Positions 4,320-64,000 of a DNA stretch of 64,000 bases are shown here, in pieces. Within the stretch, counting starts at the first letter, position 1. Each line of letters begins with the position of its first letter. Origin of the DNA: Massalongia carnosa (Eukaryota). The stretch covers positions 434,001 to 498,000 of the forward strand of contig OZ287088.1 of assembly GCA_965645245.1 (NCBI GenBank), written 5' to 3'. Below the pieces are notes generated by a model, which saw only the letters and a program-made list of their open reading frames with translations, was not told where the DNA came from and did not search any database. The translations under genes were made by a program, and so were the position numbers.

Positions 4320-7110
4320 CGTTCAGAACTGGCTAGTCCTACATTATTTAGATGACTTCCTCGTGATTGTCAAGACGAGCGAGAGGCATCACGTTGCGGG
4401 TCCGCGTTCGACACGTTATGCGACGAGTTAAGCATGCGTACAAACGCATAAAAGGGAGAGACTGGGTAAATCTGCGATTTTCCTAGGTTAACACTAGACA
4501 CTAAACGCATGGAAGCCCGCCTACCTCCCGACAAATTAAAAAAGGCCATCGAATGGGTCAACAGCGCATTGACGTAAGACTATATGTCCAAAGACGAACT
4601 ACGTTCCCTTCTGGGGTTTCTATCATTTACGGCCAAAGTAGTCAAACCAGGCAGAGCCTTTTTACGCCGCCTATTTACCGCCCTCGGCGAAGACACGGGT
4701 CGGATCCGCATAGCCGGCGACATGCGACTAGATCTATTATGGTGGCGATACTTCTTGCCCCGATGGAACGGCGTTCAAATCTTACGATCGCTGAACACTA
4801 GAGAGGAAATTCGTCTATGGACAGACGCTTCGGGAACATGGGGAATGGGCGGGTACTATTCGGTGCACCGAACCCCACACTCCACCGAAGCGGGCACGCT
4901 TTCTCGTTATTCAAATACACAAACACTAGAGACAACCGAAACACAGCGTGCGTTTGCCGAGGTATCTCTCCCAAGACGAGGTGTTCTCACGAGACCATCG
5001 CATTGGATGCCTTCAAAGAAGAAGAACTCAATCTCTTTCGAGACGTCTTCAGACAACGAGTTGAGGATACAAGATGTCCGGGTCTCGCAGTCTCAGGGGA
5101 TAGTCGGGGTGATAGACGACGAGAATTTCAACGAATTCCTAGTCACACCTGCTGAGAAGTCAGCCATACGGACCTCGTCCGGGGACATCGCAATGCGCAC
5201 CTTTAAGTCCGGGACAACCGAGATAACCGAAGAAGGAAATTACAGCGAATTTCTGAAGGTGTCTGCCGAGGTTTCTTCGATGCGGATGGCCGGGATGACA
5301 GACGAAGAAAGTTCCAAAGAATTTCTCGCTGCATCTGCTCGAGGTATCAAAGGTTCATCGGACCTCGTCCAGGAACATGCCGCGTCACGCATGACGCATA
5401 GCAAAATAGTCGGAACGATCGACGAAGGACATTCAAAGGAATCTCTAGTCTCGTCCGCCGAAGTATTCTCGATAAGGACCTCGTTCAGAGACATGAAGAA
5501 ACATATCAATGTCAAAGAAATGATGGCTGTATTACACGCACTGCGCAAATGGTTACCTATTTTTAAAAGATCCAAACTCGTTATATATGGCGACAATCAA
5601 GCTCGTAAATGGACTACGCAACGGCTCCATACGCGGCCCGGCCATGAAACCCCTACGGGATATTGCCATGCTACTAGCATTACATGACATCGTCATTGAA
5701 TCACATTGGATCTCATCAAGACAGAATACTCTGGCAGATATGCTTTCCCGTGGTCAATGGAACAAAATTGCTGACAACTATCCTTTACTACAGGACTTGA
5801 TATTAGCCCATGGTGCACAATCGGTGAACCACCGGAACACTGGTTCCAAAACCAAGAACTGTCAATCTCAGCAGCGAGATATCTATGGTGGGGCCTAGCT
5901 GTAGGGACTAGAACATCGTACGAGCAGGCACGACGAAGCTACACCGAATACTGCGTGATATGGAATCACGTCCCCTTTCCTCCGTCCATTCGCTCATTAT
6001 GCGACTGGGCAGCTCTTTTAGGCGACAAGGGAATTAACCCAAAACCCATAAAACAATACTTAAGCGGCATCAGATCTTATCAAGTCGACCGAGGCGCGTC
6101 GAAGGCCGAATTAGACATTTTCCATCATCCCCAACTAGAGAGAATCGTGGCAGGCATACGCCGGCTCCGTCCCGCCGCCCAGCCGCGAGAACGTCGTCCT
6201 ATATCCCGATCCATCCTAAAAGAGATCGTTAGTACTTTTGATCAAAATTCCTTAAGGGGAGCCACACTGCACGCGGCCTTCTGTTTAGCCTTCGCGGCCT
6301 TCTTACGTATCGGAAAATTCACATGGGAAGAAAACATGTGGGGAGACGACTTTGTTTGCCCAATGGCACATAACCAGAGGTTCACTATTACTGAGCGAGG
6401 ACAGATTACAGCTGACCCTTCCCGCCTCCAAGACGGATCCCTTCCGGCAAGGGGTCACAGTTACAGTAGCGGCCGTCAACGACGAAGCCTGCCCAGTCCG
6501 ATCATTAAGAAATCTGATTGAACGTTTTCCAATAGATCTCCCCCAACCTCTGTTCTATCCAAAAAAGGCTTTCACATGAAACTTTGTCACTAAAGCATTA
6601 CGAGACGTTCTAAAAGACAAGGGATATCAGGGAAATTATTCAGGTCACTCCTTTCGGAGAGGGGCCGCCACCTCCGCGAAAAACGCCGGCCTAAACGAGG
6701 ACGAAATCAAGCTGCTAGGACGCTAGAAACCAGACGCTTACCGATTATACATACACACAAACCCCTCAATCATATGGAATGCCTCGAGACGACATCAAAG
6801 AGGCTGAATACCACATGTCCCGCTCCTCACCCGAACCCTCACCACATGCACACCGCACCCGCACCATCGCGAGACTTCGCACGCTCTAAACCATTTCTCT
6901 GCGAGAAACACGGTTTTGGGGTTTTGGGAGTGTGTCTTGACCCCAGGGTTTGCATCTACAGCGTTCATGGACCCCGTAGCCTACCCGTTGCGGCTCCGTA
7001 CCCGGCGCGGACGGCGCACGAACGGTGTCATGCCACACCCTAGGGTCAGGACTTTGCCCAAACACTAGAATAGCAATAAACACAAGGTGGCTACGTTTCA
7101 CTAGCGTGGA
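4320..7110 (+). mobile_element. DIRS/Ngaro-type tyrosine-recombinase retrotransposon, degenerate; its 5' part has probably decayed into the AT-rich tract 3500-4320
   Basis: RT VLHYLDDFLV (~4335), RNase H LWTDAS...HINVKE...N.LADMLSR, then a tyrosine recombinase. Boundaries are approximate. Confidence 0.85.
5890..6790 (+). pseudogene. Tyrosine recombinase of the DIRS/Ngaro element
   Basis: AFAAFLRIG, ASKTD, GHSFRRGAAT and LLGR*KPDAYRLY. Frameshift at ~6350 and in-frame stops. Confidence 0.85.
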
Positions 7111-7819: not shown

Positions 7820-8167
7820 TCATCCGCAATAGTCGTTTTTACCGGCTCCAGCATCTATGCATAGATTCTTGCCGCCGCAGTACTTCAGATATTTGATGTT
7901 TCCCTCAGGGCCCCCACTGCAATGGAAGAGAAAGTCTCTGCCTTTGTCGATGAGGCGTTGGCCGTTGTCCTCCAGAGACTGCGCGATTTGTGGTTCGTAT
8001 TTGCCTGTTTATGATTAGTTGGGCAAGACGGGAGGCTGGAGCGAACAGAGTGCCAGACCTTTATTCAGGAGGTTATAGCCGCAGTAATCTAGACCCAGGT
8101 GACAGTTCTTGGCAGCAACGCTGGTTGCAAGCGCAACGAGTGCTAGGGTTGCGTAGGTCAATTGCAT
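7820..8167 (-). CDS. Small secreted cysteine-rich protein, 97 aa; exons 8167..8059 and 8004..7820
   Basis: CACC-ATG start and a 54-nt GT..CTAAT..CAG intron. Splices to MQLTYATLALVALATSVAAKNCHLGLDYCGYNLLNKGKYEPQIAQSLEDNGQRLIDKGRDFLFHCSGGPEGNIKYLKYCGGKNLCIDAGAGKNDYCG*, with a signal-peptide-like N-terminus and 6 Cys. Confidence 0.88.
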
Positions 8168-9600
8168 GGTGAACTGATAGGTCTTGGGGTATTTCTTTGA
8201 ATGAGAATGCCTTGTGTTGTTGGGGAGATGTTAACTCAGGGTGGTTTTGAAGTTGCTGGTGTGAAGTTCCGAGTTGTGGAAGATGTGTCTTGTAGTGAAC
8301 GAGAATATGGGAGAAGGGCTGGGTTGATATAGCCATGGAAGGAGCAGGCATGATCGTGAACGTTGTTTACATCTTCTTCCTATCGCTCATTGCATCGCAG
8401 AGTTTGCTTGCTTCGAGAAGGTCGGCTCCCGAGCATGCACAAGACCATGTACGAATAATTTTCCAAGACACTCGCTTCTGACTCGCGTGCCTTACTGAAT
8501 ACTATAGCCGTACTTTGCGATTCCCAGCGATTTCATACCTACTCAGACGCAGTGCGCTCATCCAACTGGGCTCGCACTTTATCCCTCCTCCCAATAGCAC
8601 GACCCACGTCCCGAGTGGAGTCCCATGGCAACTCTGAGGTCTCCAATTCTTTCAACACATGAGCACGTCGACTGGTGGCAGCTCGTCCTGGCAATTGGCG
8701 CTATCAGCAAAACAAAACAGACGTTATCGATAGCAAGCTCTGTTGTCGATTGACAGCATGTTCGACTAAATCCTTAGGTCAAATGTGCGTCCGATGCTAT
8801 GCAAGCGACGGAAAAGGTGCTTAGGTAAGAGAGGATCACATTTGCTGTCAAGTTGTGACAGTTACTTTACTTACCCTTCCTAGACGCGCTTGATGGTGGG
8901 AGGCGGGTGCGGAGAGGATTCTTGCTGAATGCGGGAAAATGAGTAGGTCTGAGGCTACTCTGGAAGTTACCACGACGCCAAACGACGAGTGACAGCTTGG
9001 AAGGAAGATTGCTTCGTCAAAGCGAATAGACGCAGATTTTACTTTTTCCGTGGTTGATTCTTGATGATCTTAGAAGTGGGAAGTTGAATTCTTTCCCCGG
9101 GTGTACGGCAGTACGATCATGTCCGTTGAACCCGAGTCCATTCATTGGAAACTTTATCTTTGATTATCACACGCTCGATGTTGAGAAATCATCATATGCA
9201 CGAAAGCAGATGTACCAGTGATGCTTGGGGCTGTGATAATTCTTACCTCGTTTATTTGATCGCTCGATTCAGACTTCAGCAAGACTTTGCCAGCTGATGC
9301 ACTGATTTGAGCAAAGGATAGCGCCAAGGACAGCGCGCTAATTAGAGTTTGACTGTTTGCGTGATTTAATTTGAATCGATGCTTTTAAACTGTAGCGAGA
9401 ATCTTGATTCATGATTAGAATTATGCTACGCAAGGATTGCGTTACTCGTATACACCGCCATTTGCAACACGCTAGTTAGTAAGCACCCCGCATTAAAATC
9501 CTTTACCACCGGTACATCAAGTTTTTTACATTTCTCCCTCTTCTATCTGCATTATCAACTCAGTTAATTTATTAAAAACTCAGCAGACGAACTATTCAAG

Positions 9601-56937: not shown

Positions 56938-57361
56938 GAGGACCGATAGTGTAGAAGGAGGAGGACCGATAGTGTAGAAGGAGGAGGACCGATGGTGTAG
57001 AAGGAGGAGGACCGATGGTGTAGAAGGAGGAGGACCGATGGTGTAGAAGGAGGAGGACCGATGGTGTAGAAGGAGGAGGACCGATGGTGTAGAAGGAGGA
57101 GGACCGATGGTGTAGAAGGAGGAGGACCGATGGTGTAGAAGGAGGAGGACCGATGGTGTAGAAGGAGGAGGACCGATGGTGTAGAAGGAGGAGGACCGAT
57201 GGTGTAGAAGGAGGAGGACCGATGGTGTAGAAGGAGGAGGACCGATGGTGTAGAAGGAGGAGGACCGATGGTGTAGAAGGAGGAGGACCGATGGTGTAGA
57301 AGGAGGAGGACCGATGGTGTAGAAGGAGGAGGACCGATGGTGTAAAAGGAGGAGGACCGAT
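56938..57361. repeat. Tandem array, 18.4 x 23 bp (GAGGACCGATGGTGTAGAAGGAG)
   Basis: 424 bp of near-perfect head-to-tail units without spacers. Confidence 0.97.
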
Positions 57362-57451: not shown

Positions 57452-58787
57452 CAGTACTAGGCCAAAAGTCTGCGGCCCCGCACCCCACCAACATTTCAAT
57501 CATTCTATTCAATCGACAATCAACCACGTCACGATTGCTGAAATGTCTTGAAACTTCACATAATGATTACCTACATACTAAACAAGAATTCCCCCAAAAA
57601 TTGGTTTTTGATATTTAGTATACCATCCTTCCGACGCTATACACGCTTTTATCCTTCTATTCATGCTCTCTATTAACCTCCTCATCATTTTCACATCTAT
57701 CAACGTCCAGGCTTCTTCTAACGCTTTCCAAAGTACCTCACGAACAGTTTCATCACTGCCGATCACCAAATCTATGTTCGGGTTGACTTGATAGACGAGC
57801 TTTTTGAGCACATACCAAATATGCTCGATGGGATTTAAATCAGGTGAATAGGGGGGCCAATCGATGACCTCTATGCCGTTCTCATTGAACCATTCCATTA
57901 CCTTTTTAGCCTTATATATAGGTGCGTTATCCTGCATGAAAATGAGGCCCGGTTGCCAAATTCCAAGCAGATTATCGTTCAATAATTCCATATATGAGTT
58001 CGCCGAGTACCCCATCCTCTTCGCAGCAAAATCACGAGCCAATTTGTAAAGATCTGACCTGTCATCTCCCCAAAAGCTGCCCAGACCATGACACTGAATC
58101 CTTTGCCTTTGGGGACAGGTTGTATCATCTCTTTATTCCATTTTTCTTTCGGCAATCTGAACACCCACTGACGCTGTTTTCCTGACCCCTTTTCCACCGA
58201 GCACTCATCTGACCATATAACTCTTGACCACTGCTCAAAAGTCCACTCACGCCGCAGCAAGCACCAATCCAATCGTTTCTTGGCCACCTCAGGCGTCAAT
58301 AAAGGTCGTTTTTTAGCCACCCAGTTGGTTAAACCATACAGTTTGAGTGCCCGATAAATAGTCGTACGACTGCAGCCGAGCCCCACTTCTAGTTTGATTT
58401 GTGCATAAGTGATTCGTGGATTGATTCGTGCATGCTTGATGATATAACGTCGATCGCGTTCTGACAGCACTTCAGGCCGTCCAGAACGTGATTTAGACAC
58501 GCCGTCGTTGCGAATTGAGTGCTTCTGAATGGTGCTCTGCACGGTCGATTTAGTGAAATTAAGAGTCTTCCCAATCTCGGTCGGTGTGTGCCCCAACGCC
58601 TGGGCCCCAACAATCATACCACGTTGATATGGCGTCAATTCAGTGTTACGAGGCCGATTACCACTTATGGGGGTCAAAGAAGCACGAAGCATGGTGAAAT
58701 GATGAGGTGGAAGATGGGGGTTGATGAGTTGAAAACGCGAAATCACGAAAATTACGGGTTGGGCCGCAGACTTTTGGCACGAGACTG
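57452..58787 (-). mobile_element. Tc1-like transposon (1336 bp); transposase ~58692..57578 with one frameshift
   Basis: TA|CAGT...ACTG|TA with ~27-bp TIRs. WSDE, QDNA and SPDLNPIE motifs. One T missing at ~58073. Confidence 0.93.
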
Positions 58788-61250
58788 TAGGACTTAAAAT
58801 GCTCAACATGCAATAAAAATAATATGGCAAACGATTGTCTTAAGCTGTCATTTAGAAGCGTTATGATAAATTTCTACAAAGTTTCATGTCGAGTACTTGA
58901 TCAAGGCGCCGTTCAACGTAAGATTCTTGTTCTTGAAATATCATGCACAGGAAGAAACAGTACTCGATCGTTTTTGATTAAGCAGTTCTTGCTAAGAGAT
59001 AAGTCACTTGATACTTTTTCTCTCGTGTCGTCTTCGCGTATCAGTAATCTCACGCTTGACATTTTAACGTTATCTGAGAATGAGCGATATAGCGGTAAAT
59101 CGAAAGAATCGAGACTTTCTACATTTAGTGATAGCAGAAACTCCACGAAAGCTGTCAGTCAAGCACAGTCGAGCTCATCAATTATTGTGACAATTAGCAG
59201 CTTTTTCTTGAATATCCATGTCATAATTAAAATGATTCAAGTCAGGGTTGAAGAAGCTGTCGCTTTTGAGTATTTCAAAATCGAGTGATTGAAATGATCG
59301 GAAATCAGATTTCGGAAATCAGTGAGGTAAAGATTAAAGTGTTTTGAAGTTAAGATTTTGGCACAAAGACTGACAAGAGCTCTTCATTGCTGTAATGCCG
59401 GCGTATAATTGTCTGATGTTTCGCAAAGAAGACAAAGCTCTCAAAGCATTTGAGCAGAGTCCATATTGTCATACACCGTCGAAAGAGAAGCACATAAGCC
59501 CACACATGCAAGGCCTTCTTCAGTTTCCGCAAGGTAGGTAACGATGTGCTTTATTCCAAAGCCAACCCAAATAACATTGCCATACGAGCCATTTTCTTAA
59601 GCTTTTGAATAGCCTCCGTGAGACGCATTAGAGCTGCCTGGTCAAGCGCGAAATTGGAGCATATCAGACGGCCCATCCCGATGGTAAAGGCATCGATGTG
59701 TTGTGCAAAGCTTGCGCTTGCGGGAACGACTGATGAAGAAGCCATTGTTTGTTATGAGTGTTTCTTGGCTGGTTATGTTTAATAGAAGAAAAGCTCTAGG
59801 ATTTGAATAGGACTTAAAGCCTCGTGTTTAGCTAGAGGATTAGATAATCCATCATCGGCAAATGACAGCATAGACAGCATTCTTAAGGCGAACCTTTATA
59901 GACGGGAGCGGTGTAAAGATTATCGTGCACAACCTCAATCGTCGATATTTTCTCGTTAAGATCTGCATCTGTAAAAGTATTGGAGTGGTCGCCGACGACG
60001 AGAACGCTACAGCGATGACGATCTTTGCTGACTAGAAGTCGACTTGGTCAGAGAAAAGTACAGTAGTAAGAAGCCTCGCCTGTCATGACAGATTTGGTCT
60101 TATCTTAGCTTTCGAGAATAAACTCCAGGAAGCAAACCCGTTCTTTTCCCATGAGCGGTATTCCTTCGAATCAATGGTCTGTCTAAAGTAGGATCTCGAG
60201 CGAGTAACGTGGCACTCGCGAGTTTCCTCTCATCTTTATTGATTTGATCGAAGTAAGTTTCATCGCGTCTACGACAATGCAAGCTTCAGGAAAGTTATCA
60301 CTATAACTCTATATAGTATCTCATATTCATCATTTCCTTTCGCTTCTTCACTGCCGCAATGTTTAGCTCGACAATCTGTTGCTTTAGAATCTTGATCTCG
60401 AGATCCGCCTTCAATCGCTGTAACTTGCTTTTTCTAAGTTGATTATACTCTCGGGAATATACGAGAAAAGTAGCTGAAACACATGTTACGAGTTTGCCTG
60501 AATGCAAGAAATGTGAATGAGAAGCAAAAGTGAGTTCAGTCGAGAGTGAGAGCTTGACAAGTAGATCAGATGATAAAGATAGAGAGATGTTAACTTCTAT
60601 TTTACTCTCTTACAAGAAGACATTAAATATTAACTTTGTCACTCGTCAACGTCACGGAACGAAAGAATCAAATAAAAAATGTATCACAAGACTCGCGTGA
60701 CGTTCACTGATAAGATACATATACTCGAATGCAATTCGCAAGCGAGCTCTCGAGAGTTCCATTTCCGTAAAAGCGCTTTTGTCCTCTATGCTCTTCTTGG
60801 AAGTCACTCCAGAAAAACAAAAAAGCCTTGCCGGTCAAGATAGCTGAATCATCGCGGTTTTTGTCAGTCCACCACGATGGATAAAACACACCGAACTCAA
60901 TCGCCAGAAAATCAAGGTATATATAGCATTTGCGGTAGAGGCATTGAAGACGCTATAAACAGATGAAAAAATCTTGTAAAAATCCAAAGTCGACTGGGAT
61001 GCAGCGAGGAATGCGACTGACAAGTCAGTCCAGTCTCACGAGATCGGCGATCCCTCGCTCCGTGTTGCATGTCACCAAACTCGTCTTGCACCAATACTTG
61101 TGATAAATCCGAGTGTCTTTTCTCAAGAGTCCATCAGCTACAGATGGTAGTCAGTAGTGTTTCCTATTAGCGAGATCGTTCCAGTGCACGTGAATTAGTC
61201 TCTGGATAACATTAGATAAACTACATATTATAACGCCCAATTCCGATTTT

Positions 61251-63992
61251 TCAAAACCTGGACAAGCTGCGAAGCTCATATTCAAGTTCCTCAGGATCAA
61301 GATCTCTTCTCTCAGGCGTCCGAATAGGATTTTTATTCAATTGTTTTCCATTCCTCCACAGATACCACGTTCTCTCGAGTATGACCAGTGCGACAATTCC
61401 ACATATCGTATACGTCCATTTAACTCCAAATGACGACACATATAAACCTTGTCCTATAAGTGGAAGCAAGCCCCCGATGCACGCCCCTAAGAAATTATCA
61501 GCAGCTAGAGCATCAGCAGAGTCACGAACAAATATATCGACAAGATACGCCTCTATCGTAAGTACTGTCAGTGACGTTCCAAGGCTCGCCAATAGAGTGG
61601 CCACGAGAGGCACGATGAGCTGATTCGCCTTTACTACGCTCCATCCAAAACTAATGATTCCATAGCAAACAATCAGGCTGCCCGGAACCAATGGTAGCTG
61701 CCGGTATTGTGCTATGACTTTACCCCTCCCTTCCATCTTTTGATCAATCCAATCACATGCCCATTGAAATAGCCCGCAACCAATAAGACTGCCTATAATG
61801 TTCCCGATGAAGATTCCTAAGAACGATAGACCAGCCTTTCCTGGGGCAAGGTGCCACTTTGTTGCATAGCTATAACTGGGTGTGAAGATTGGCGTAAGAG
61901 TCGTGTAGAGGAGGTACATATAGCCCTTCATGAGAGCTAAGTAAAGGACTAGGATGGTCACTGTCCGCGAAGACTTCAGTAGCCTAGTTGGTCGGCTGAT
62001 AGCCCGACGGAAGGAAAGTTTGAAAGGAACGCCATAATCAAGCCAATGCCGAAAGGCCTGATAACGCGGTAAGTTCTGTTCACGTGCTATTGACCTCCGG
62101 AGAATTTGTCGTTCGTTGGTCTCAGACATAAAGGCCGAGGTTGCAAAGTGAAGGAGTCCGCCCTGCCTTTAGATCAGGATTTAGTCGAGAGAAGTGGAAT
62201 GACTCACCATAATTGCAATAGCTCTAAAGACCCACCGCCAGCCTGCATGTTCTGCCAAATATCCACCAGGGACAGGGCCAATGCTGGAACCTAGCATTGA
62301 AGCTATCGTAAGGGCAGCTGTTGCTTGGCCTCTTTCCTTAAAGATAAAAAAGCCTTTGGGACCTTCGACGGAGCTACGATGGCGTCCGAGGATCTCCAGT
62401 CTTTGAGATCTCTTCTTGTCAAGATACATGTCTTCGATGGATCTATGGCCAACGGCGGGGGTGCAGGCAGCAGCGCACCCCGCAAGAAAACGGATTATTA
62501 TCAAGGCACTCGTGGTTGGCGCCACAGCACAAGCGACGTTAAAGATGATAGATAGAATGTTGCAGATTTTGTAAACAACGCATCTTCCATACGCATCTGA
62601 CAATGGCATGAGCAAAAGCGGCCCAGTGATCTGCCCAAACACGAAGATAGAAACGATTAAGCTGCCTAGCGCATGGTTGCTAGAGCGAAGATCTAGCATT
62701 ATTAGTGGAACGCTTGGTGCGACCATAGTAGAGGCGAAGCTGTTTAGAAAAGTGAGTGAGAGGATAATACAAAAGTTCTGGCGTTTCTGCCACGGATTCA
62801 ATTTCATAGCGTTGCTAGGATCGCTTTGACTGCGCCAAGGTATTCCGGATTCGAAGTTGTCTACATAACTCTCGGACTCGAGGGCATTTATAGGGCTCCC
62901 GCCCGTTAATCCGTCCTCGATATTGTGATTATCATCTGGATCCATGCTTATAGGACGTAATGTCACAACGTCCTGAATCCTCGCTGCTGGTGCAGGACGA
63001 TGGCGCTTCTTGGGCAAGATCGAGAGCCTACCGACCTTTCGCCAACGTCCGCGTATATTCTTACTTAGGTCAGTAGAAGGCGCGGTCTCCAGGTTGTTCA
63101 CAGGTTGAATTGAATCGTGAGCTACCTCAGCTTCAAATTCCCGGACACGATCGGGCATGTTGGGAGGTGAACTAGACGCCCGTCCTACAGCTAGGTTGTC
63201 CTTTGTTAAGTCTCTGAGCTCGTTGCCAAACTTGACTTTCTTGCCGTGAATAGTCTCCATTTCTCTGAATGCATGTTCCATAGTAACCATGAAGCAGGAC
63301 CGCCCTAATCCGGTTATGGCCACGACATAACCACAGACGTTGTTTTCACGCACAACCCATGCCCCAGATGCTCCAGAAGAAAGTGGTTTGTCAAGTAAGA
63401 CTTCTCGGACATCCATCACTGCCTGCCCTGTATTAATAGAGACGCTGGTCTGAGTGAGGAAGCCGCTGCAGCGTGTATTCACAGTGTCCATGATCTGGAC
63501 ATCGCCTGGGGAAAGTTCCAACGCTGGAATGACTGATGACATCTTGGCAGATGTCGCAAATTTTGATAACAGTGGATGCGTGTTTAGAACTTCGAATAGA
63601 GCCCAATCCGAGCTTGACGGATCAAAGCTTGTAGAATTACCTATCGTTATGACTTCCCCTAGGAATGAATAAGCTATAGCAGCCTTGATCTTTGATGTCC
63701 ACAAAGAGGTAAAGTTCATGGCGTTGTGTGGAGAGGATGGTACCGAGAAGAAGGAGGCTTCTACAGGATCGGCTTCACCGTCTGAGTCAGAGCTAGGATC
63801 TATAGGAGTTATGTCGTCCGAATTTGAGGCCTCGTTCGCGCTGCGCACGTCTGCGAGAAATGTATGCGCAGTGGTCATGATGAATAGAACTTCGTCAATA
63901 CTTATGACGCCACCAAGGGTTGCGTAGCGTTGCTGGACAGTGCCAGCCTGTAAAACATCGAATTTCATTTTGAGGCCCGAGATGGCTAGCAC
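61251..63992 (-). CDS. Trypsin-like serine-protease domain fused to a DHA1-like MFS transporter; intron 62163..62207; 5' end beyond the window
   Basis: One open frame carries TTAH, DWAL and GASGAWVV, then MFS helices (PLSDAYGR, GWRWVF). A 45-nt GTGAGT..CAG intron joins in frame to ORF 61251..62129. Confidence 0.85.
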
Positions 63993-64000
63993 GTCACTTT

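Follow-up and report, generated by a model that had tools for sequence, protein, structure and literature searches.

A conserved fusion of a trypsin-fold protease with an MFS transporter in Massalongia carnosa, and its head-to-head partner gene

Can a protease of trypsin type and a membrane transporter be encoded in one uninterrupted frame, and what might such a protein do? This question is raised by the last part of a 64,000-nucleotide stretch of Massalongia carnosa DNA (G000:C22:434001-498000), here called the window. A preliminary description proposed that the frame may encode a single-chain transceptor-protease. The window is almost entirely occupied by transposons, mostly LTR, LINE and DNA transposon ORFs, whose classes are presumed from their motifs. 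It also contains a 23-bp tandem repeat at 56938-57361 (18.4 copies, 99% matches), a Tc1/mariner-type transposase in two frames at 57578-58839 (HTH_Tnp_Tc3_2, DDE_3) and, at 4578-6521, an RNase H-like segment followed by an ORF without a Pfam match, which is presumably a relative of the tyrosine recombinase of DIRS/Ngaro-type elements.

Gene model and domains of the fusion

The frame is located on the minus strand (62181..63998), contains no stop codon and runs off the end of the window. In the organism's own genome it continues for 943 bp to a first ATG at G000:C22:498943, and 315 further N-terminal residues are encoded outside the window. The frame comprises 921 codons from stop to stop, or 920 from the first ATG; as a chance control, the same stretch was base-shuffled 200 times, and no frame without a stop exceeded 230 codons. 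The predicted spliced product has 1,215 amino acids, of which 303 are added by exon 2. The features are listed below; all dN/dS values come from one pair only, the M. carnosa gene and its 72%-identical relative L006.

Beyond the window, within G000:C22:498001-498943, minus strand: N-terminal residues 1-159, hydrophilic and fast-evolving, with no signal-peptide-like stretch; dN/dS 0.77
Beyond the window, within G000:C22:498001-498943, minus strand: pre-protease alpha/beta domain, residues 160-290, aligning with the domain that precedes the protease in NAL1; dN/dS 0.47
63231..63998, minus strand: trypsin-fold (PA clan) protease domain, residues ~316-571, from fold model, structure matches and triad; dN/dS 0.35, CI 0.24-0.50
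63864-63866, 63606-63608 and 63366-63368, minus strand: catalytic triad codons H360, D446 and S526
62790..63230, minus strand: hydrophilic linker of ~145 aa, open and in frame, ending in a remnant of a DHA1 N-terminal tail; dN/dS 1.13, as in neutral evolution
62208..62789, minus strand: MFS N-half (TM1-6), DHA1-type, with diverged TM4 and TM5, from Pfam and alignment
62340..62417, minus strand: 26-aa charged insert in the TM4-TM5 loop, before KERG, from alignment with canonical DHA1 proteins
62163..62207, minus strand: 45-nt GT..AG intron with an in-frame stop, splicing predicted from sequence
61251..62162, minus strand: exon 2, MFS C-half, 303 aa
G000:C22:499295-500410 (L002:5295-6410), wholly past the window end, plus strand: head-to-head partner gene, 371 aa

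The claim of an in-frame fusion of protease, linker and MFS was upheld, and the lengths first given for the linker (~140 aa) and the insert (~27 aa) were close to those measured here. Assembled contigs from all four public runs were free of substitutions, indels and joints across the gene, which two of them span in one piece; these runs represent at most three samples from two studies, and two may be the source of the same assembly. Nor was a splice joint seen in the four runs, none of which is on record as RNA. The intron occupies the same codon position and phase as in two of the three stand-alone DHA1 paralogues compared. A scan for GT-AG borders with a branch site yielded no candidate for a cryptic intron in the linker or in the TM4-TM5 insert.

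All three motifs first noted for the protease, TTAH (H360), SDWAL (D446) and GASGAWVV (S526), are present in the translated frame. The trypsin fold, named beforehand as a point on which the proposal could fail, was supported by a structure model. The model of the protease region (pLDDT 84.9, pTM 0.87) had 58 Foldseek matches at E<=0.001, those listed being NAL1 and S1-type proteases, and the top 50 matches in the VIA structure search were trypsin-fold chains, as judged by title. In the VIA alignment, model range 30-428 falls on NAL1 90-461, and the NAL1-like layout, a pre-protease alpha/beta domain and a protease, is present in the model. In sequence searches, Pfam gave no match for residues 1-581 at E<=1 and hence none to PF08192 (peptidase S64); the nearest sign of S64 was a neighbouring Atlas cluster (score 0.95), 15% of whose members are S64. 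No PDB entry was matched to the protease by phmmer, the best 60 of 64 matches in a PDB profile search fell in the MFS region only, and PADLOC had no match for P0001 or for the partner.

The triad is strongly conserved among homologues. In a first set, His was found in 62/62, Asp in 62/62 and Ser in 61/62; in a wider set the figures were 82/82, 80/82 and 81/82, with the complete triad in 79 of 82 diverse members. The residue preceding the catalytic Ser is Asp in only one of the 82 and Ala in 48, so the doubt about activity originally attached to GASG in place of GDSG was unfounded. By its modelled fold the domain is a PA-clan serine protease, NAL1/Ssy5-like, and its activity is predicted from the conserved triad. 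No hydrophobic segment occurs before residue 724 of the fusion, and the N-termini of MFS proteins face the cytosol. These two facts would place the protease in the cytosol, tethered to the membrane, as had been supposed.

In the tail, Pfam MFS_1 (PF07690) covers residues 728-912 (E 1e-25). The domain is nested among fungal DHA1-like proteins and has the DHA1-type intron; the assignment to DHA1 with a diverged TM4 was borne out, and TM5 is diverged too. The best family profiles, TIGR00880 and TIGR00710, were both below cut-off, as was also the case for two stand-alone controls. In TM4 the glycine run GGG[ST] is replaced by GHRS, and in TM5 the first half of the motif is lost (ASMLGSSIGP for GPL[ML]GP[VA]IGP) while the second GP-x-x-GG is retained. 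The fused DHA1 domains in general lack both the TM4 glycine run and the first half of the TM5 motif. TM4 and TM5, which carry named antiporter motifs, line the transport path. The loop insert of 26 aa is reduced to 15 aa in P0008 and absent in P0036, P0044 and P0104. Both MFS halves are under purifying selection in the comparison with L006 (dN/dS 0.61 and 0.49). The MFS part appears whole but altered; the motif changes suggest that it may have lost transport, which in DHA1 proteins is drug/proton antiport.

Homologues and the variety of their tails

The homologue search was scored on residues 160-590 only, and 62 proteins passed. In 35 of the 62, PF07690 was found in one ORF with the protease; the fusion is thus present in relatives, where its absence had been foreseen as a counter-argument. 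The named members among these homologues are lichen fungi, and two NCBI models from Cladonia borealis (KAK0507431.1, KAK0511515.1) contain the protease and a full MFS. The spacing between the Ser motif and TM1 could be measured by pattern in 30 of 36 proteins; it ranges over 171-242 aa with the frame intact, implying that insertions and deletions have kept the frame. These data also bear on the possibility that two separate proteins are made here, the MFS being translated from its own start within the linker, or that the frame is an assembly artefact. Three Met codons in the linker could provide such a start, but they are not conserved among homologues. The lack of variants in the four runs, the 35 homologues fused in one ORF and the frame kept over a varying distance make this explanation very improbable.

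How did the transporter come to be attached? In a quick tree of MFS N-halves, which took in 19 of the 53 fused and 45 of the 78 MFS-only rows, a single clade with long branches (support 97) united 18 of the fused domains with two fragments. Outside this main clade, on a very long branch, was the Exophiala fusion KIW17453.1, and two Dothideomycete models (KAF2728232.1, KAF1993486.1) contain a DHA2-like MFS tail. Since the tail is DHA1-like here and DHA2-like in the Dothideomycetes, MFS domains must have been captured at least twice. A protease and a complete MFS in one chain recur in three fungal classes, and the DHA1 tail is stable across a whole lichen clade in a protease tree that was likewise a quick one.

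Other members of the family have quite different tails. Pfam matches among 52 proteins scanned were to MFS, DUF7025, Zn_clus, transglutaminase/Rad4, a Zap1 finger and ankyrin, most proteins having no match; HET, PigL_N and CorA tails were also found. The types can be summarised as DHA2-type MFS, CorA, PNGase, Zn2Cys6, HET and ankyrin. Tails longer than 150 aa occur in 121 of 163 core-bearing proteins and fall into 30 BLAST clusters, several of them consisting merely of low-complexity sequence. Many records are single exons, and tails are therefore undercounted.

Some records are incomplete. P0007, P0033 and P0016 end early, through error or decay, and the same two causes may account for single frameshifts in the partner and in MFS exon 2 of L006 (L006:3639-4771, 7995-8896); the partner of L007 is split in the same way. 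P0103 was ruled out as a shortened allele, as it sits on a 1,921-bp contig, and P0173, P0184, P0215 and P0234, which matched through the MFS alone, were left uncounted as fusions. At L010:5153-7303 an apparent TM helix separates the pre-protease domain from the protease; it would alter the topology and may be a mis-read intron.

The variety of tails could mean that the tail is a passenger or an anchor: protease and partner would work as a unit, the gene would tolerate fusion to whatever lands downstream, and the MFS would merely tether the protein. Such a view agrees with the very varied and partly unstructured tails, the neutral evolution of the linker, the homologues that end early, and the intron and N-terminal tail kept by the captured DHA1 gene, as DNA-level capture would leave them. 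It is nevertheless rather unlikely. A single helix would suffice as an anchor, yet dN/dS is below 1 in both MFS halves, the MFS is whole in the two Cladonia models, and MFS capture has recurred.

The partner gene and a possible sensor module

The start codon of the partner gene is ~350 bp from that of the protease-MFS gene, on the opposite strand; a short-chain dehydrogenase gene lies downstream of the partner (L002:7454-8292, minus strand). The partner consists of a globular domain, one hydrophobic helix (318-336) and a short tail, and its structure model is mostly helical with a pLDDT of 87.5. Family searches gave no family match and structure searches no fold match; in the search with the whole chain, no gasdermin was among the fold matches listed. 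A weak search among longer proteins found no fusion of the partner to another domain. From hydropathy and the known MFS topology, both products would expose large domains at the cytosolic face of the membrane.

Head-to-head pairing was read directly at seven loci: the M. carnosa gene, the only other protease paralogue found in its genome, L006, L007, L010, L011 and L024. L006, L007, L010 and L011 are all of the metagenome loci with enough upstream DNA, four of nine fetched; L006 and L007 are near-identical, and L010 and L011 share 24-25% identity with the query. In the second M. carnosa pair, on G000:C21 (L015:7649-10000, L016:190-1134), a GDSG protease with a CorA-like tail faces a partner paralogue. 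L024 was found with the partner alone; the gene opposite it gives a match to the protease profile, and after this come DnaJ and phosphatase segments that may be in the same frame. In this gene (L024:418-5040) the protease has Cys for the catalytic Ser (GDCG), and the phosphatase segment is of Ser/Thr type. L024 was the one locus found among GTDB genomes, in a gammaproteobacterial bin; with split genes and eukaryote-type neighbours it was read as fungal DNA, and a bacterial partner homologue was rejected.

Further pairs were indicated by shared contigs. For 25 of 66 partner matches the longest contig equals in size that of a protease record, which shows a shared contig and not orientation, and 10 of 14 further cluster members likewise share a contig with a protease, as judged by eye. 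The Stereocaulon locus tags 006796/006797 (one of each family) are adjacent. Contigs of 66648, 28125, 51816 and 1137110 bases contain two partner types each (~72% and ~40% to the M. carnosa partner), which suggests two clustered pairs in Cladonia-like genomes. The divergences of protease and partner are correlated over 21 pairs (Mantel r 0.89, 0 of 5000), as would also follow from shared descent; these are 18 of the 25 above, seven ambiguous or truncated ones being dropped, together with the M. carnosa pair and two from the further cluster members. Over the same pairs conservation is higher in the partner (mean identity 0.60) than in the protease (0.43).

A third copy of the partner, matched weakly over two segments (E 2e-9 and 3e-6), is opposite an NB-ARC/TPR gene. 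At this G000:C2 locus, an NLR-like gene (DUF7708, NB-ARC, TPR; L017:954-4134, minus strand) is head-to-head with the diverged partner-family copy (5530-6826, plus strand), and no protease match was obtained in the 10-kb stretch. This copy is relevant to the idea of a toxin-antidote or inhibitor pair, in which the partner restrains the protease or the reverse, at a selfish or incompatibility locus. The tight divergent linkage with co-divergence, the transposon-rich setting and the tandem second pairs on some contigs would be expected of such a locus, but conservation is far stronger in the partner than in the protease. Together with the copy that faces an NLR-like gene, this conservation fits a shared output better than a dedicated inhibitor, and we consider an inhibitor pair quite improbable.

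The transceptor reading is less likely. Under it, the MFS would bind a small molecule, such as a lichen metabolite, and activate the protease in ordinary signalling, in the way that Ssy1 activates Ssy5 in yeast. The fusion, the fold, the presence in relatives and the tethering are all supported, the protease is S64/NAL1-like, and the MFS is complete, with altered TM4-5, a loop insert and persisting selection. Its SPS-like part has lost ground: most kinds of tail found in the family are something other than transporters, the protease is constantly accompanied by a separate partner gene rather than by an MFS, and Pfam S64 has no match. No Ptr3- or Stp1-like neighbour appears in the ORF lists at the locus, though yeast does not cluster these genes either. 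Ligand gating through the MFS is possible, while the transceptor as a whole is distinctly unlikely.

When a variable gene for protease plus tail faces a conserved one, the layout is that of a sensor and its executioner. We give a probability of roughly 50% to the reading that the M. carnosa gene provides the sensor in a module of two genes, for defence or nonself recognition, and that its product would cut the membrane partner encoded head-to-head with it. The cytosolic protease would be held inactive by its own N-terminal domains. The MFS part would be a captured copy of a housekeeping protein, serving not as a pump but as bait or reporter of perturbation by a drug, toxin or foreign protein; such perturbation would switch the protease on. 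The active protease would cleave the partner, whose conserved domain would be the output, probably growth arrest or cell death. The kept triad, purifying selection on the protease, swapped tails, repeated MFS capture, lost DHA1 motifs with long branches, pairing, higher conservation of the partner, the partner copy opposite an NB-ARC/TPR gene and the transposon-rich surroundings are consistent with this module. Against it, the partner resembles no known death effector, purifying selection on the MFS halves is also expected from a working transporter or a plain anchor, and the DHA1 tail is stable across a lichen clade, unlike fast-turnover alleles. The low-complexity tail clusters, the correlation expected from shared descent, the frameshifts in L006 and the homologues that end early also weigh against it.

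A more general and clearly tentative proposal is that an innate-immune system of filamentous ascomycetes has gone unrecognised. Host targets might be guarded by NAL1-like proteases whose integrated decoys are interchangeable (drug pumps, CorA channels, PNGase, transcription-factor fingers, phosphatase); once triggered, such a protease would cleave a membrane executioner of new fold, encoded head-to-head with it, that NLRs may drive too; the M. carnosa gene would be a protease receptor with a whole transporter as bait. If this is true, the list of tails would name host proteins attacked by antagonists. A literature search, made largely outside subscription papers, found no description of a protease-MFS fusion or of the protease-partner pair, and the architecture of a protease and complete MFS in one chain was not found described there. 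Of greater value is a defined module of two genes, found among Pfam-blank proteins, whose orphan partner is modelled with confidence. This module allows direct testing of a possible new fungal route to cell death or defence by proteolysis, and it bears on whether fungi use integrated decoys as plants do.

Relation to known systems

Plant paired NLRs with integrated domains (PMC10883720) offer one comparison. As in the M. carnosa pair, a variable sensor with a captured host domain is head-to-head with a conserved second gene. The M. carnosa pair differs in that neither gene contains an NB-LRR, and the signalling step would be proteolysis.

Rice NAL1 (PDB 8pn2, 7y77) is described in the available text as a soluble hexameric cage that cuts transcription regulators and has no membrane tail (PMC12012508). 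It shares the protease fold and the pre-protease domain, named after the same source, with the M. carnosa protein, which has a membrane tail. The yeast SPS sensor Ssy1-Ptr3-Ssy5 (S64) is similar in its cytosolic chymotrypsin-like protease with a long N-terminal region and in its transporter-derived membrane domain. In the available parts of the sources, however, the SPS components are separate proteins, Ssy1 derives from amino-acid permeases, and S64 is described as single-domain; in M. carnosa there is one chain, the transporter is DHA1, and PF08192 has no match (PMC5567314, PMC6761765, PMC12958826). The Pezizo3 subfamily of S1 is reported from Pezizomycotina with the motifs H[V/C], DW and gDSGs and a few members with extra domains, and the supplement, as far as available, gives no MFS fusion or partner (PMC5567314). 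DW is common to both groups, while the present family has H[T/P/S] and mostly GASG; the two are set apart by their described motifs.

Among fungal gasdermins, 80% adjoin a protease gene and are activated by cleavage, as in het-Q1/het-Q2 (PMC8851545, available text). This system resembles the M. carnosa pair in clustering two genes, one for a multidomain protease whose long termini vary and one for its separate partner. Its proteases are S8 or CHAT, the word trypsin not occurring in the available text of PMC8851545, whereas the M. carnosa protease has a trypsin fold. Cleavage of the gasdermin partner is established for het-Q; the M. carnosa partner, with no gasdermin among its listed fold matches, may be cleaved by analogy.

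In bacteria, trypsin-like proteases paired with MBL pro-nucleases occur in Hachiman, AVAST, Lamassu and DRT, where a protease fused to different sensors activates a separate pro-nuclease (PMC12799240, in the portion available). The interchangeable sensors of a trypsin-like protease and the separate, adjacent effector gene are common to both systems. The bacterial effector is a nuclease and the sensors are defence enzymes, in contrast to the captured housekeeping domain that would form the tail in M. carnosa. The M. carnosa fusion is real and conserved, and it is a variant of protease-partner systems.
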